From an uncultured virus (IMG/VR IMGVR_UViG_3300012267_000003) (lineage: Duplodnaviria > Heunggongvirae > Uroviricota > Caudoviricetes), in the IMG/VR virus record IMGVR_UViG_3300012267_000003: a DNA stretch of 64,000 nucleotides; one strand, given 5' to 3'. Within the stretch, counting starts at the first letter, position 1. Every line of letters begins with the position of its first letter. The translations under genes and the position numbers were made by a program. Shown here piece by piece: positions 1,922 through 62,497 of this stretch. The notes beneath the pieces were generated by a model, which did no database searches, was not told the origin of the DNA, and saw only the letters and a list, made by a program, of their open reading frames with translations.

Positions 1922-3541
1922 TTAGATATTGCCTAGAACAAACTCATTGAGCAGTGTAGGTACTGAGGTATCACAGCCCACGATATCAATCATTCCGGGG
2001 TCTTTCGGGTCCGCAATGGTATTGCTGTTTGATGACATTGCTAGAACTGCCAACCGAGCATCGATATTACGCTTCTGTCGGTACTGGACAAGAGCTTGCG
2101 ACGGGTGGATGTTCCCGTAGTACGTCTCCGAATCAGTGTAGACGAAAAAAGCATCGAAGTCTAGATTGTTCTCCGTCGCCCACGTCATGGGAAGCGCACA
2201 GTCAGTCGAACCAAAGGACAGATTGGCGATTGACTTGATAACATCATCAAGGCGCTGTCGAGGACTCAGATTAAGGGGTGTAAACTGGTGTGAGAACCCC
2301 ATAATCTCGTAGTTTTCCTCTGTTCTCATGACCGTCATAGCCAGAGCGGCACTTACTTCCCGAGGTGTCAACCCAGCCAACCCAGCACAAGAGTTCCATG
2401 TCATGGAACTCGAAACATCAAGTCCCAAGCAAAGGCGCTTGCCTGTTGGTTCTACAAAATCAAATGCCTTATAGAAAGCATCATCAAGTGCATCTGTTAC
2501 TTTGGGCACAGGCCGCCACGAGAGAGATCCACGGAATCCTTCACCTCGTGCATAAACGCGCATAGCATTCAACACAGACAGGGGGTGGATCCGAGCCCGT
2601 TTGAGGTACTCCTCATCTCGAAGTCGGGATACGACCAGATTTGTGGAGTCTGACATGTTAGTCAGCAACCCTTCCGAAGTCATTTTGCCAAGATTTCGGA
2701 TCATAGCCGTAAGAGGCATCTTCTCCAAAAGAGCTTCCCATACCTTTACCTCATTGAGGAATTCGGTGGGGATACACTCACGTGGCAAATTGTAATCTGA
2801 AATGAGATTCAAAACCTCTTTCAGGTCAGAAGAGTTCTGAGCCTTCTCAAAAGCCCAAACCCGCTTCAGGGTGTCGTCAGGATGTGGGTCCGATCCGATT
2901 CCATCCCAGCCCTGAGACGCCCACTGAAACAGAGCATCTCGAACCTCATTTTGAGGCTTGACGTGAGCTTTCAAAAGGATGTCCCGGTGTGTCCATCCGT
3001 TTCGGTTCCGGTATTTAATCATCTGGTACGCCAGATTATCGTCGGACTTTCCGTTGTACCAATTCTCGAAAGCACGACGTGTTACACGACCCCAACCACC
3101 GAAGGGCTTGATGCTCTCAGCCAACGTAGTGAGGTGAGTGAAAGTACGACACACTTTTGGTACAGCTTGAGCTGCCGCTTGGCGAACTGGGATAGATTCC
3201 TCAGTTCCGTCATTGAATTTGAGCGCTAGAGCCAGAGCAAAGATTGCAGGATCATTGCGCACGGCGCGGCCAGCGTCAGAAACTTCGACGATCTTATTCA
3301 CAACCCGAACGCCATCTTCTTTGAGACACTCAACCACAGCCTTGGCGTTGTCCATTGTGAGATTTCTCTCAGAGACATAGTAGGATCCGCCCTCCGACCC
3401 AAGGATCAAAAAACGGTCCAAGCGCTGCCATTTAGTGGTAGCATATCCGTAACCACCACCATGATTCTTCACTTGGTCTTCCGACAGTGGTTCGGTCTGG
3501 GGTGTTTCCGATTTCGATTTGAAAAACTTAGAATAATTCAT
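1922..3541 (-). CDS. rsr: Ro60/Rsr-like TROVE + vWA RNA-binding protein
   Basis: Motifs NHGGGY..RLDRFLILGSEGGSYY, GGWGR, KYRNRNGWTHRD, MPLTAMIRNLGKMT, RARIHP, MIDAS LDVSSSM, TDSET and IADPKDPGMIDIVG; start moved to the ATG after a GAGAGG SD. Confidence 0.95.
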   Translation of the reverse strand: MNYSKFFKSKSETPQTEPLSEDQVKNHGGGYGYATTKWQRLDRFLILGSEGGSYYVSERNLTMDNAKAVVECLKEDGVRVVNKIVEVSDAGRAVRNDPAIFALALALKFNDGTEESIPVRQAAAQAVPKVCRTFTHLTTLAESIKPFGGWGRVTRRAFENWYNGKSDDNLAYQMIKYRNRNGWTHRDILLKAHVKPQNEVRDALFQWASQGWDGIGSDPHPDDTLKRVWAFEKAQNSSDLKEVLNLISDYNLPRECIPTEFLNEVKVWEALLEKMPLTAMIRNLGKMTSEGLLTNMSDSTNLVVSRLRDEEYLKRARIHPLSVLNAMRVYARGEGFRGSLSWRPVPKVTDALDDAFYKAFDFVEPTGKRLCLGLDVSSSMTWNSCAGLAGLTPREVSAALAMTVMRTEENYEIMGFSHQFTPLNLSPRQRLDDVIKSIANLSFGSTDCALPMTWATENNLDFDAFFVYTDSETYYGNIHPSQALVQYRQKRNIDARLAVLAMSSNSNTIADPKDPGMIDIVGCDTSVPTLLNEFVLGNI

Positions 3542-3604
3542 GGTAACCTCTCGTAAGTTGCTCACTAGGAGCGAGTACGGCCCGCAACTATTATGGGCAA
3601 ACAG

Positions 3605-7496: not shown

Positions 7497-7669
7497 GACG
7501 GACCTTAACAACTGTGGCATAAAAAGGAAAGCAGCGTCGTGAGGATGACCGAGGCCGGGTGCGAGAGAAGCTGCAAAGGGTTTGACCGATAAGACTCTCT
7601 TATAGTAGGGTACCCCTTCAGTTGACCTTGTAAAAGGTCTGAGGTATTCACAATCATGAAGAGGTGTAC

Positions 7670-8089
7670 ATGGCAGAACCAACTATTAACGAAGTTCTTG
7701 AAGAGGGCATCCGGATTAATCGGGAGCTTAATGAGAAGAAAAATCGTTTGAACGAAATCAAAGATATACTGAGAGAAGAAGCAACAGCTCAGAGAACGGG
7801 TACCCAAAGCCCCGTCGAACTCACAACAGAGGATGGCGAGCATACGGTCTCCGTAAGTTTCCCAACCGACTCATACAAGATCAAGGCCGACATTGACAAA
7901 ATGTACACCATCAAAGCCGATGTGGGCGAGCTGCTTTTTGCTATGTTCTTCAAAGAAAACACGAAGTTCTCCGTCGATTCGGATTTCGAGGAAAACGTCG
8001 TCAAGGTTTCAGATCCCCTCCAGAGGCAAGCTCTAGAGGGCGTGGTGGAAAGGAAACCCGGAACACCACGTATCACTTTCCCGAAGTAA
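7670..8089 (+). CDS. hypothetical protein
   Basis: GAGG SD; N-terminal coiled coil; several TTGAC hexamers upstream. Confidence 0.75.
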   Translation: MAEPTINEVLEEGIRINRELNEKKNRLNEIKDILREEATAQRTGTQSPVELTTEDGEHTVSVSFPTDSYKIKADIDKMYTIKADVGELLFAMFFKENTKFSVDSDFEENVVKVSDPLQRQALEGVVERKPGTPRITFPK

Positions 8090-8146
8090 AGTTTGGGAAA
8101 CCGGACCACTACAGGTCCATTCAATAGCGTCGTCTCCATGTCGCTA

Positions 8147-8190
8147 AATTAACCCCCGGTGCCTTATAAGGTTTCGGGGGTTAATTGTTT
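8147..8190 (+). terminator. probable terminator hairpin
   Basis: AATTAACCCCCGG/TCGGGGGTTAATT inverted repeat followed by GTTT. Confidence 0.65.
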
Positions 8191-8374
8191 CTAGGCTAAC
8201 CCCCTGAGAAGCCCCACAAAGCACCCTGTACTTTCCTGTGTGAATCGGAGTAGTACCAGATACGATTAAAAAAGAAATCCTTTACAAAAGCTCTACGAGC
8301 CTTATATGGTACTAGAAGATCGTAATGTCGGATCTGTCTCTGGAGATTTTTCGAAATTTATTTTTCGTGCCTGA

Positions 8375-8950
8375 GCCGATACGTGATTACTATCGGTATT
8401 CCCCCACAAAAGGGGAAGATTACATAGACGGGTTAACAACCGTCGCCGGTGCTGAATTTTGGTATCTCACCAAGATTATAGTGGTTAGCTGGTAGAGGTC
8501 TCCGTGCTCCCTCACCATAAAGAGCATTAACACAGAGGATCGAAAACCACGTTCCCCGACAAGGGAATTTTAGTTCGATGACTCCGGTAGGTATCACCTG
8601 CCACCAAGAGATCCCTAATAAGATCTCTAGAGCGTATGGATGATCCAATGGCTTCCTGAGTCGGATCATGACCGCTGGTAAGAATTGTCCCCTATGGACT
8701 CTTCAATGGCTTCCTGAGCCGAAGAGTGACTGGGACCCGCCCACTGGGGCGGTTAGTCCTGTTAAATAGCTCCTGTGGCTTCTGAGAAGCTCCTAGCTAC
8801 TAATACGAGTCGAGAACTAACCACCCATAATTCCTATCGAGGCAAGTAACCACTGAAAGCCTATGGATTCCTCAATGACTTCCTGAGTCGAGGAAAGACC
8901 GCTAAGCAGTTGATACCTAGTTCGGTACGCAAGGCAAGAGGTTTTAGAAG
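8375..8950 (+). ncRNA. candidate large structured non-coding RNA (or structured DNA element)
   Basis: No credible ORF; dense run of hairpins; three covarying repeat hairpins; candidate promoter TTTACA-N18-TATGGT at 8281-8310; strand inferred from a single G-U pair. Confidence 0.5.
8631..8903 (+). repeat. three copies of a ~45-nt hairpin motif (8631-8676, 8687-8736, 8858-8903)
   Basis: TATGGA-[6-bp stem]-AAT-GRCT-TCCTG-AGYC-[stem']-WGAC, with stems TGATCC/GGATCA, CTCTTC/GAAGAG and TTCCTC/GAGGAA. Confidence 0.9.
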
Positions 8951-9057
8951 GTAGGTAGTTAATGAATAATATCAGAGATTATATAGATATACTCTATAGT
9001 TCTTCTCTATTTACCTTTCTATAATCAGTCTTCACCTTTGTAAGATTAATACAGATA

Positions 9058-9144
9058 CAGTAATAGAAACTATAGAAATAGCAGCAACAGCAGTAGCAGA
9101 TACAGTAGTACGAGTAGAACGAGTAGTAGAAGTAGCAATAGCAC
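9058..9144 (+). repeat. in-phase NAN trinucleotide array (TAG/CAG-rich) next to an AT-rich tract
   Basis: 27 of 29 consecutive triplets have a central A. Confidence 0.75.
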
Positions 9145-9416
9145 CGAATACGACAGATGTAGAAGATGATGCTTAATAAGAGATAGCTGTACCGCAGGTG
9201 AAAAAGCATAGCTTATAAGGCTGTGTTTATAGGGTCCGCTATGGGCTTGGTGGGGGATGGGTTTCAAGAACAGGATCTTGTTTTTATGAGATGCTTTTTA
9301 GGGAGATCTATAACTTTTCGACCGCTCTGCCCGGTTTTTGGGTATAATATAGTGAGTCCCTCTGATTTAGAGGGTGATCACGACCAAAAACAAGCAATAC
9401 CCCGAGGAGTTATTAC

Positions 9417-9680
9417 ATGCTTTACACGAACGAAGAAGACGGACCCAATATTGATGAGCTTCTGGAAGATTTTATCTGCGCTCTAGTATCTTCACCCGAA
9501 GATGTGGTGATTGATCGCGTAGAAACAAATTCTACCTTAATCTATACGATCGATGTGATCAGTGATGATCGAGGTAAAATTATTGGTAGAGGAGGTACGA
9601 TTATTAACAGCCTCAAAACCATTTTCAGGGCTCTTGGTTGTAAGCACGGCAAAAAAGTTCATCTAGAAATACAGGAATAA
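9417..9680 (+). CDS. KhpA-like single KH-domain RNA-binding protein
   Basis: LVSSPEDV..DDRGKIIGRGGTIINSLKTI..KKVHLEI; GAGGAG SD; TATAAT at 9343. Confidence 0.85.
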   Translation: MLYTNEEDGPNIDELLEDFICALVSSPEDVVIDRVETNSTLIYTIDVISDDRGKIIGRGGTIINSLKTIFRALGCKHGKKVHLEIQE

Positions 9681-10533: not shown

Positions 10534-11229
10534 ATGTTAGTACTCACCGAGGATCGGCTAGCTGTTTTGGTGTCGTATTTCCTATCGCAGAGAATGGGGT
10601 ATCATTCTAGCGTATCTGAGGTCTTGGCGGGTCGTATTGAGGGAGAGCACCCTGCCGTTTTTAGTGACGTTAGAGATCGCTATGTGGAGCAAGATGTTCT
10701 GGATGTCTTAAATTACCTTTCGAGCTGTCCCAAAAAAGGGCATAAATGGGTTCCAGCTTATGAAGGTTGTTATTCAGCTACGAGAGAAGGTCAGGTTTTT
10801 TCTTGGTACCGGGATAAGAGGGCTTCGGTCAAAAGAGAGATCAAAAGCCACATGAAACAGTTGGGTGGTCGGTATTATGTGACCCCCTCTTTTCGGGGCA
10901 AGGGTTTCTCGATGCCCCGGTGCCGGGTTATTTTGTGGACCTTTGTAGGACCACCTCCTGACGACCAAGAGGACGCCTGTTACATTGATGGGGATTCGAC
11001 TAATGATCGACTGGATAATCTGAAATGGGTATCTCGCAGTGAGAATATCCACAATGCAATCCGAACTCAGGACAGCTCAGGAAAGCGCCGTGCCAAATTC
11101 CTCCCTCACCAAAAAGAGCGGATGGTGGAGCTATATAAAACCGGTGACTATTTCCAACAGGACATTGCCGAGATGTATGGTTGCACACAAGCCGCCGTCT
11201 CCTACATTATCAGTAAATACGACAAATAG
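10534..11229 (+). CDS. NUMOD4/HNH homing-endonuclease-like protein with C-terminal HTH, catalytic His apparently lost
   Basis: WVPAYEGCYSATREGQVFS (NUMOD4-like), TFVGPPP..ACYIDGDSTNDRLDNLKWVSRSEN, QQDIAEMYGCTQAAVSYI. Confidence 0.75.
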   Translation: MLVLTEDRLAVLVSYFLSQRMGYHSSVSEVLAGRIEGEHPAVFSDVRDRYVEQDVLDVLNYLSSCPKKGHKWVPAYEGCYSATREGQVFSWYRDKRASVKREIKSHMKQLGGRYYVTPSFRGKGFSMPRCRVILWTFVGPPPDDQEDACYIDGDSTNDRLDNLKWVSRSENIHNAIRTQDSSGKRRAKFLPHQKERMVELYKTGDYFQQDIAEMYGCTQAAVSYIISKYDK

Positions 11230-54528: not shown

Positions 54529-55545
54529 ATGAGTAGAAGAAAGCGTCTATCTTGGAAGACCAAAGAATCCAAGCGCCGTAACCGCAAAACGGCTGACCCC
54601 TATACAATGAATCAGGATCGAACTCATGTACCCGTTGAGGAGTATATGGTAGGAGATCCTTCCGAATGGGCTGAAGATCCCGTTGATGATCTGTCCCACA
54701 TGGACGGTACTGACCGGAATGAGATCGGAATGCCCGAAATGTTGCCCGAGAATCGTAGTGCTCGTTCTGTCCGTGAGGCCAGAATGCAGATTGCGAAAAT
54801 GGAGCAGCATTTCGAGAAAAAGGCTCTTCAATGTGTCCGCATCGCAGAAGCACTTCTTCCCGGTGCAGGCGAAGATGTTATCGCGGCACAAGCTCTCGAT
54901 CTAATGCCCCTTCCCGATGAGTCTGTAATGGACACATCGATCCGCCTTACAGATCTTGGTGTTCTTGCCTCGGAAGAGGAAGAAGAGGAAGAGGAAGAGG
55001 AGAAAGAGGCTTCCAAACTAAGCTCCGCTGAAATGCTTCGAATTATGAAAGCAGAAGAAGGCGAAGAGGAAGAGGAAGATGAAGCCAAAGAAGATGGCGA
55101 CGACGAAGACGATGAAGACGACGAAGATGAAGCCAAAGAAGCTGGCGACGACGACGCCGATGAAGATGGCGACGATGCCAAAGAGGAAGATGGCGAAGAA
55201 AGCGACAAAGAAGCCAGTGCATATCTGGACGAAGATCTTGACGCTATGCTCGCTGATATGGAAACCGATATGGGTGGCGACATGGGTACCGCAGAATTGG
55301 GTATCGATATGGAGCCCCAGCTCGATCTCCTAGACCACGAAGCGCTTCTGGAAGAGAGCGATGATGCATTGCAATCTCTTATGAACCAGAACTACGGGGT
55401 TGAAGCTACACAGAATAGCCGACAGGCTAACATTCGCAAAAAAGTCAATCAACTTGGGCGGGTGAAAGAAGCAGGTTCCACAGCTACAGATCCACTTTCA
55501 GGTCTGTGGGACAGTGCTCCCGACGTTTCCAACGTCTTTTCGTAA
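54529..55545 (+). CDS. capsid scaffolding protein (acidic)
   Basis: Long D/E tracts, repeated KEA, located between protease and capsid genes. Confidence 0.65.
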   Translation: MSRRKRLSWKTKESKRRNRKTADPYTMNQDRTHVPVEEYMVGDPSEWAEDPVDDLSHMDGTDRNEIGMPEMLPENRSARSVREARMQIAKMEQHFEKKALQCVRIAEALLPGAGEDVIAAQALDLMPLPDESVMDTSIRLTDLGVLASEEEEEEEEEEKEASKLSSAEMLRIMKAEEGEEEEEDEAKEDGDDEDDEDDEDEAKEAGDDDADEDGDDAKEEDGEESDKEASAYLDEDLDAMLADMETDMGGDMGTAELGIDMEPQLDLLDHEALLEESDDALQSLMNQNYGVEATQNSRQANIRKKVNQLGRVKEAGSTATDPLSGLWDSAPDVSNVFS

Positions 55546-62468: not shown

Positions 62469-62497
62469 ACTATACCCCAAGGTAGGACCCTCGTCAA
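62469..62497 (-). promoter_or_regulatory. sigma70-type promoter
   Basis: Minus strand TTGACG-N17-TATAGT. Confidence 0.65.

Follow-up and report, generated by a model that had tools for sequence, protein, structure and literature searches.

Large, intricately folded noncoding RNAs are rare, and the phage-borne GOLLD and ROOL are functionally unexplained. Most conserved loops of ROOL and GOLLD mediate RNA-RNA contacts (10.1101/2024.12.08.627333). Bacterial Y RNAs are encoded within 2 kb of Ro60 and carry the Rsr-binding motif GNCGAAN0-1G near their 5' end; they link Ro60 to PNPase, which touches the RNA through its S1/KH domains (PMC4201824). Among sponge RNAs, CrcZ sequesters Hfq/Crc (PMC8121710, PMC9272787), and A-R-N repeats are recognised by the distal face of Hfq (PMC8121710). 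Here we analysed a stretch of 64,000 nucleotides from an uncultured virus (IMG/VR record IMGVR_UViG_3300012267_000003), hereafter the window, in which three look-alike hairpins are paralogous side arms of a previously undescribed structured noncoding RNA of about 615 nt (8427-9041). A sequence-only reading of the window had described these hairpins as three copies of an unknown motif; the hairpins are real, but they belong to a larger RNA closed by covarying long-range helices.

The three hairpins claimed at 8631..8903 exceed chance. Indeed, a regular expression for the exact layout of the 38-nt motif finds exactly three copies in the window (8635-8672, 8693-8730 and 8862-8899, all on the plus strand), the same three and no others are recovered in the 64 kb with up to three mismatches, and 100 dinucleotide-preserving shuffles of the window contain a mean of 0.00 copies. 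Folded in isolation, all copies adopt the same shape, namely an outer stem, a 5+3 internal loop, a 7-bp stem, an AAU bulge and a tip of 4-5 bp with a UCCUG loop, or CCU closed by U-G, with minimum free energies of -16.1, -19.1 and -12.7 kcal/mol for copies 1, 2 and 3, respectively. The 6-bp stems differ in sequence yet pair perfectly, as had been stated (TGATCC/GGATCA, CTCTTC/GAAGAG and TTCCTC/GAGGAA in copies 1 to 3), and the G-U pair reported for the tip of copy 1 is present (GGCT/AGTC). On the other hand, two partial echoes proposed by the same reading did not hold up: the site near 8368 has only the 8-mer CCTGAGCC in common with the motif and no fold (z -0.24), and that near 8777 is a separate 6-bp hairpin inside an insertion private to the window's lineage. 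Neither echo is detected at E<=10 by a covariance model of the hairpin, and this model finds no further copy in the window, in contigs G001-G003 (304 kb) or in phage LR745208.1 (485 kb). The genome collection, scanned with the tip pattern and not with the model, gave two loci, both due to chance. Since no other copy occurs in this material, the motif appears to be restricted to this RNA. For the same reason, an operator-plus-sponge layout, in which the hairpin would recur in phage mRNAs, was rejected: no extra copy was found in any DNA searched.

Pattern scans of IMG/VR, the JGI metagenomes and the GTDB genomes yielded eight copies of the RNA region (the window and L050; L010, L013, L044 and L048; L045 and L046), all from lake or salt-lake metagenomes and IMG/VR. 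They represent three distinct sequences, whose lengths from hairpin P1 to an invariant 16-mer are 613, 616 and 536 nt and whose pairwise identities are 60-67.5%; these stand for the window's lineage, lineage B (L010) and lineage C (L045). These lineages provide seven full copies of the arm, and in their alignment 94 of the 98 cells are paired and 10 of the 14 stem pairs change on both sides. None of 500 shuffles scores as high, and sliding the partners leaves only 0-4 such pairs. By contrast with the stems, 22 of the 48 columns are invariant, comprising GGA, the AAU bulge, nearly all of the tip and GA. The AAU bulge and the GRCU-UCCUG-AGYC tip are unchanged across the full copies, and stem lengths are fixed in 7/7.

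Each arm consists of two separable modules, since the tip has been lost in lineages B and C while the basal part stays. At seven of nine arm positions the distal bulged hairpin, with its AAU bulge, GRCU stem and UCCUG loop, is preserved to the letter, giving three complete tips in the window, two in L010 and two in L045, whereas the purine-rich asymmetric basal loop 5'-NAUGG-3'/5'-GAM-3' is found at 9/9 positions in the three lineages. In the tipless forms, outer stem and basal loop persist together with a short hairpin; the hairpin model scores these forms at 17.9 bits (H2, lineage B) and 12.8 bits (H3, lineage C). The basal loop probably serves as a structural elbow. In a kink-turn, tandem sheared G-A and A-G pairs come directly after a 3-nt bulge. 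The basal loop resembles such an element, but with 5' NAUGGA/3' NGAM the expected A at position 2b is G and the 3' strand has an extra nucleotide. The kink-turn signature is therefore lacking, and we take the loop to be an unclassified purine-rich elbow, as judged from its letters.

Comparison of the three lineages revealed long identical blocks, e.g. GACGGGUUAACAACCGUCGCCGGUGCU, which alternate with variable stretches, and no conserved open reading frame (ORF) across the core in the compared lineages. The consensus fold of the core contains 114 pairs with 306 of 330 cells paired (92.7%). Both sides change in 35 of these pairs; shifting the partner by 1-3 columns leaves 4-9 such pairs, and 0/500 shuffles reach 35. 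Thus the selection on structure suggested by the sequence-only reading is borne out, covariation in both arms and core lying above slid controls and shuffles. An extended consensus fold has 140 pairs, 38 of them compensatory, and the 851-nt region folds well below its shuffles (z -5.97 on the plus strand, -4.55 on the minus strand). In the core-closing helix, columns 113-676 and 114-675 read A-U/C-G in the window and G-C/U-A in both L010 and L045. The helices and the other features of the locus are listed in the table.

Table. Features of the RNA locus and its surroundings in the window.
Feature	Position	Strand	Description
Structured core	8427..9041	+	P1 hairpin to 3' closing strand; homologous blocks in three lineages; predicted RNA
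P1 hairpin	8427..8444	+	GACGG-GUUAACAA-CCGUC; starts the block conserved in all lineages
Other core hairpins	8504-8527; 8539-8579	+	the second with an inner hairpin
Core-closing helix	8532..8538 with 9035-9041	+	ACAGAGG with CCUUUGU; 2 compensatory pairs
Long-range helix 8	8584..8595 with 8912..8925	+	encloses all three arms; 12 pairs, 4 compensatory
Arm H1	8631..8676	+	outer stem AGCG/CGCU, basal loop UAUGG/GAC, 7-bp stem, AAU bulge, tip GGCU-UCCUG-AGUC
Long-range helix 12	8677..8686 with 8829..8838	+	10 bp, 2 compensatory; directly after H1, encloses H2
Arm H2	8687..8736	+	outer stem GUCCCC/UGGGAC, rest of same design; tip missing in lineage B (L010)
Arm H3	8851..8911	+	outer stem CACUG/CAGUU, rest of same design; tip missing in lineage C (L045)
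Invariant 16-mer	9024..9039	+	AUCAGUCUUCACCUUU; identical in all three lineages
(A-R-N)n tract	9050..9169	+	about 120 nt, directly 3' of the core, predicted unpaired; counterparts L010 ~1911-2030, L045 ~1841-1960
Terminator-like hairpin	8147..8186	+	after gene 7664-8089; left edge of the noncoding region; fold only, terminator scan did not call it
Promoter-like site	9318..9348	+	TTCGACC-N17-TGGGTATAAT; ahead of the KH gene, conserved in three lineages
KhpA-like KH-domain gene	9417..9680	+	87 aa; Pfam KH_KhpA-B, E 2.2e-16; NCBIfam KH families below cut-offs
Ro60/Rsr homologue	1922..3565	-	Pfam TROVE and vWA_Ro60; NCBIfam Rsr, 507 bits

The two halves of the 16-mer can pair with GGAGGC (8930-8935) and ACAGAGG (8532-8538), respectively. 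An alternative partner of its ACCUUU is AAGAGGU at 8936-8942, and its GUCUUC competes with GUCUCC (8498-8503) for GGAGGC; these alternatives cannot be ranked because all of them are invariant. With such mutually exclusive partners of AUCAGUCUUCACCUUU, a conformational switch is possible. The AAGAGGU/CACCUUU pair also resembles a Shine-Dalgarno/anti-Shine-Dalgarno duplex. A tRNA-like reading of 8480-8560 was rejected, since its segments form ordinary covarying helices; for instance, the T-loop-like segment GGAUCGAAAACC belongs to a covarying 6-bp helix.

The RNA is probably encoded by the plus strand, with ends that are predicted. Several findings favour this strand. The consensus fold is more stable there (-111.8 against -94.5 kcal/mol). 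Its pairs include 37 G-U and 8 A-C cells, and several of the G-U pairs are invariant. Both tips bearing a G-U or U-G pair would break on the minus strand. From 4379 onward, all long ORFs with family matches lie on the plus strand, and the (A-R-N)n tract that follows the core also agrees with this orientation.

In this tract, A-R-N triplets occupy 28 of 40 positions in the window, 34/40 in L010 and 24/40 in L045, compared with a mean of 14.8 and a maximum of 21 in shuffles, so that the sequence of all three lineages shows the pattern associated with the Hfq distal face. The tract keeps the pattern and not the sequence, the conserved column being A. A coding origin was considered. ORFs with a start codon run through the 16-mer and the tract in L010 (1788-2105) and L045 (1799-2035) and would specify a Ser/Asn/Arg-rich peptide, but they show no significant similarity to each other (E 0.032), and the window tract has two in-frame TAA stops. 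Moreover, its Ser-like triplets are AGY in 14/14 cases and its Arg-like triplets AGR in 9/9, against 30% and 29% in the phage ORFs. Since the pattern is kept without the sequence, AGY/AGR use is exclusive, stops interrupt the frame and the ORFs are unlike, the constraint on the tract appears to act on nucleotides and not on protein, and the coding alternative was rejected. The raw A-R-N count alone is not unique, because a Glu-rich coding stretch at 54974 reaches 25 of 40 triplets. Judged by its letters, the tract may constitute a single-strand platform of the Hfq type.

The RNA represents a new class among large structured phage RNAs. The sequence-only reading had not recognised the hairpins as a known riboswitch or ribozyme, and an Rfam 15 scan of the window gave no match at the gathering threshold to any family, including GOLLD, ROOL, Y_RNA, CsrB/RsmY/RsmZ, ribozymes and riboswitches. 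There was no match with E<=10 inside 8100-9100, none with E<=5 in the whole window, and none with E<=5 inside the RNA of L010 and L045. ARAGORN found no tRNA or tmRNA gene in the 64 kb. A full-text literature search found no description of the RNA. The supplement files covered from the IMG/VR structured-RNA survey of Fremin et al. 2023 (PMC10690425) contain neither the two IMG/VR sample numbers nor Ro60 or TROVE, and the RNA may be among the candidates in its other files. Just upstream of the RNA, lineage C has a perfect hairpin of about 23 bp (L045 1156-1243), whose Rfam match to a miRNA precursor is spurious (E 2.8e-05, below the gathering threshold). A promoter-like site, TTGACT-17-TATGCT, was read by eye directly before P1 in L045; no promoter for the RNA is assignable in the window.

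The distribution of the RNA is narrow. The exact pattern of the sequence-only reading matches no locus in IMG/VR, and a relaxed tip pattern matches 17, of which two are true. Four other conserved-block patterns gave true loci in 2/2, 2/20, 1/4 and 2/30 cases, all on the lineage B contigs G002 and G003, and a fifth gave no locus in IMG/VR. Eight loci came from the metagenome scan, five of them true and three chance matches without stem pairing; all remaining pattern matches are likewise due to chance, lacking stem pairing or context. Positions 8400-8960 have no blastn match among 50,697 GenBank phages, and a search of IMG/VR for the KH-protein locus returned the same contigs and one weak partial match only. 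A trace of a fourth lineage is found on a 380-nt DNA contig of lake run X5, which carries an H2-like hairpin with three differences over 34 nt from window positions 8697-8730. Its outer stem is wholly different yet complementary (GCUGC/GCAGC), its 5' basal loop is CACAGA in place of UAUGGA, and a P8-like hairpin follows.

The window derives from a very large phage. Its genes include a clamp loader, a beta clamp, RecA, a RecD2-like helicase, an NAD ligase, a ribonucleotide reductase, a sigma factor and an HK97-type capsid protein, the latter being 78% identical to that of LR745208.1 (an uncultured 485-kb phage) and 40% to that of Bacillus phage G. The hairpins lie inside about 0.8 kb without a credible gene, between the terminator-like hairpin and the KH gene. 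Ro60 and a KH protein are indeed encoded nearby, as had been stated. Each of the three lineages has the KH gene on the downstream side of the RNA, at 69-75% protein identity, although the gene upstream of the RNA differs in lineage C. Genes of the KhpA type are very rare in GenBank phages, as tblastn detects them in 2 of 50,697 records, both short fragments. The strong promoter-like site ahead of the KH gene has an extended -10 followed by GUGAG and counterparts at L055 1295-1330 and L045 2250-2285; only one other site of this type occurs in the 64 kb, at 62476 on the minus strand. Ro60 was sought in the window, G002 and G003, lineage C being known from 3 kb of contig, and the copies in G002 and G003 are 72% identical to that of the window. 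It is encoded on the strand opposite to the RNA, 4.9 kb from it in the window; in G002 the distance is 12.9 kb. The carriers of the RNA form a small group of very large phages that encode Ro60. LR745208.1, the closest sequenced relative by capsid, has no Ro60, KH gene, 194-aa neighbour or hairpin, which makes the RNA/KH/Ro60 block accessory in this group of huge phages. Among small unknown genes, 10534-11229 of the window encodes an HNH endonuclease that also has a helix-turn-helix domain. Its absence from the matching place in G002 makes it a probable mobile homing endonuclease.

The sequence-only reading had proposed CsrA/RsmA, Ro60 and the KH protein as ligands of the hairpins. CsrB/RsmZ-type sponges carry many GGA motifs, mostly in apical loops or single strands. 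On the plus strand, GGA occurs 8, 13 and 11 times in the window, L010 and L045, respectively, against 8.6, 9.3 and 8.5 expected, and the GGA of the motif sits in an internal loop instead of an apical one. This half of the CsrA proposal finds no support. On the minus strand, each full tip presents CAGGA as a 5-nt apical loop, three in the window, which does look CsrA-like, and GGA occurs 15, 12 and 13 times against 8.9, 10.0 and 8.7 expected, a weak enrichment overall, the window count being matched by 17 of 1000 shuffles. Taken together, these sequence features do not support a CsrA sponge. As regards Ro60, the Rsr motif GNCGAAN0-1G is not conserved in the RNA. GCCGAAG occurs in two of the three RNAs at places that do not match (the H2 stem in the window and a variable hairpin in L010) and is absent from L045; the vertebrate GGUCCGA is absent from all three, as is the T-arm pattern GTTCRANNC, and none has a T or D arm. 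The RNA thus lacks the defining features of YrlA and other bacterial Y RNAs: it has no conserved Rsr motif and no tRNA-like arms, and neither its size nor its distance from Ro60 fits. The proposal of the KH protein fares better in one respect, its position: since its gene follows the RNA in all three lineages, it is, by position only, the best candidate among the named ligands.

We favour, tentatively and somewhat short of an even chance, a reading in which a protein docks at the repeated arms of an RNA scaffold. In this model a rigid core would present its two or three identical distal modules to a single trans-acting partner, most likely a protein, so that the RNA would function as a multivalent scaffold or decoy. 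The candidate partners would be the phage KhpA-like KH protein and, after it, Ro60; the (A-R-N)n tail, predicted to be unpaired, may in addition offer single-stranded RNA of the kind bound by the distal face of Hfq. The invariance of the bulge, tip stem and loop, next to stems that vary, suggests base-specific recognition, and variation in the number of tips (3, 2, 2) on arm bases that stay is as expected for redundant binding sites. A trans-acting partner is also suggested by the lack of further hairpin copies in the DNA searched. Its position and the scarcity of KhpA-like genes in GenBank phages point to the KH protein, and the Y RNAs that join Ro60 to PNPase set a precedent (PMC4201824). 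A protein partner is further favoured because the tips point away from the junctions, no conserved complement is found at corresponding positions, and the layout is a familiar one. HIV TAR and the PP7/MS2 operators have a 5' bulge of 3 nt (or 1 nt), a 4-bp stem and a loop of 5-6 nt. Such bulged protein-binding hairpins have a fixed bulge and loop identity and a free lower stem, and occur singly in viral RNAs. The arms, with a 3-nt bulge, a 4-bp stem and a small loop, recall this classic form; the resemblance is one of layout between unrelated systems that have no sequence similarity.

Several points weigh against this reading. Binding is itself a prediction, only three distinct sequences enter the comparison, and the strand preference is predicted as well. 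Indeed, the plus strand is preferred less firmly than the single G-U pair cited by the sequence-only reading suggests, since the 83 pairs common to both strand predictions include 10 G-U and 6 A-C, and single-sequence energies are equal on both strands for two of the three RNAs. The search that found no conserved partner sequence for the loop at equivalent sites of the three RNAs covered Watson-Crick and G-U pairing only. The adjacency of the KH gene may reflect plain synteny among relatives, and this gene has its own promoter-like site. Finally, since the conserved loops of ROOL and GOLLD are mostly RNA-RNA contacts, invariant loops alone do not indicate a protein.

This last point leads to the strongest rival, only a little less probable, namely that the tips dock into other parts of their own RNA or of neighbouring copies to build a compact or multimeric RNA-only particle like those of ROOL and GOLLD. 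A large, ornate, phage-borne RNA with multi-way junctions, long-range helices and a fold z-score of -5.97 is what this explanation expects, together with the invariant loops and the stem lengths fixed in all seven full copies. The loop itself speaks against it: corresponding positions of the three lineages hold no conserved partner by Watson-Crick or G-U pairing, and UCCUG is unable to self-pair. Moreover, each of two lineages has lost a single tip and kept the arm base, the ROOL and GOLLD models are unmatched and no tRNA lies nearby. A giant Y-RNA-like partner of the phage Ro60, whose arms or basal loops bind Ro60 and which tethers it to another factor, appears improbable. Ro60 is indeed present in the window and, at 72% identity, in G002 and G003, no canonical YrlA-like RNA is seen (no tRNA-like element and no Rfam match), and Y RNAs are modular tethers (PMC4201824). 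Against it, GNCGAAN0-1G is not conserved, GGUCCGA is absent from 3/3 RNAs, the RNA has about 615 nt instead of 80-130 nt and no T or D arm, and Ro60 lies on the opposite strand at 4.9 kb (window) or 12.9 kb (G002) instead of within 2 kb (PMC4201824).

It is very improbable that the region forms a long 5' leader controlling the KH gene in cis, to which the KH protein itself would bind, or that the repeats act in DNA. RNA, tract and KH gene do keep the same order and orientation in the three lineages, and no promoter is assignable to the RNA in the window; however, a conserved promoter-like site separates the RNA from the KH gene, about 380 nt including the tract lie between the core and the KH start, and the G-U-tolerant compensatory change in 35 pairs is a signature of RNA and not of DNA. 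The least probable explanation is a CsrA/RsmA sponge, whose dimers would bind AUGGA on the plus strand, or the CAGGA apical loops if the minus strand is transcribed. The GGA in the 5-nt apical loops and the minus-strand count in the window (15 against 8.9, with 17/1000 shuffles as high) agree with it. The plus-strand GGA is at expectation and in an internal loop, enrichment on the minus strand is weak in L010 (12 against 10.0) and L045 (13 against 8.7), and the consensus fold of that strand is 17 kcal/mol worse, with tip pairs broken into A-C. In addition, CsrB, RsmY and RsmZ are unmatched in Rfam, and an invariant bulge and tip stem within a closed 600-nt fold exceed what a Csr sponge would be expected to need.

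The docking-site reading can be carried further, to a bolder and unlikely proposal: the RNA could organise a phage-built ribonucleoprotein that seizes host RNA metabolism, as a giant multivalent analogue of Y RNAs whose arms dock the KH protein (or Ro60) and whose tail soaks up host Hfq as CrcZ does. The RNA has unusually readable features, with three identical arms, an A-R-N tail predicted to be single-stranded, a KH neighbour and Ro60 in the same genomes. Binding of the KH protein or Ro60 by its arms would make it the first such scaffold RNA from a phage and would widen the Y-RNA idea of an RNA tethering RNA-handling proteins. If, on the other hand, the RNA self-assembles, it would constitute a third natural RNA architecture beside ROOL and GOLLD.

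Sponge RNAs are strings of simple hairpins. Like CsrB/RsmZ and CrcZ, the RNA of the window repeats a short element on one molecule, in copy numbers that differ between relatives; unlike them, its repeats are arms of a closed fold of about 600 nt, GGA is unenriched on the favoured strand and no Rfam model matches. Its 3' tract bears the A-R-N repeat recognised by Hfq, a likeness to the CrcZ/Hfq system as outlined in PMC8121710 and PMC9272787. With the Y RNAs YrlA and Yrn1 it shares a Ro60-encoding genome, and a tether logic is plausible; KH domains, those of PNPase, contact Yrn1 (PMC4201824). It differs from them in being five times larger, in lying 4.9-12.9 kb from Ro60 and in having no conserved GNCGAAN0-1G and no T/D domain. 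GOLLD and ROOL (10.1101/2024.12.08.627333) come close: each is a phage-borne noncoding RNA of several hundred nucleotides that combines many helices and multi-way junctions with long-range pairings, invariant loops and a stretch lacking structure. They often lie beside tRNA genes; the phage location is present here, with 0 tRNA genes in 64 kb. In contrast to GOLLD and ROOL, the RNA described here has no Rfam match and no nearby tRNA, and it combines three repeated identical arms with an (A-R-N)n tail.

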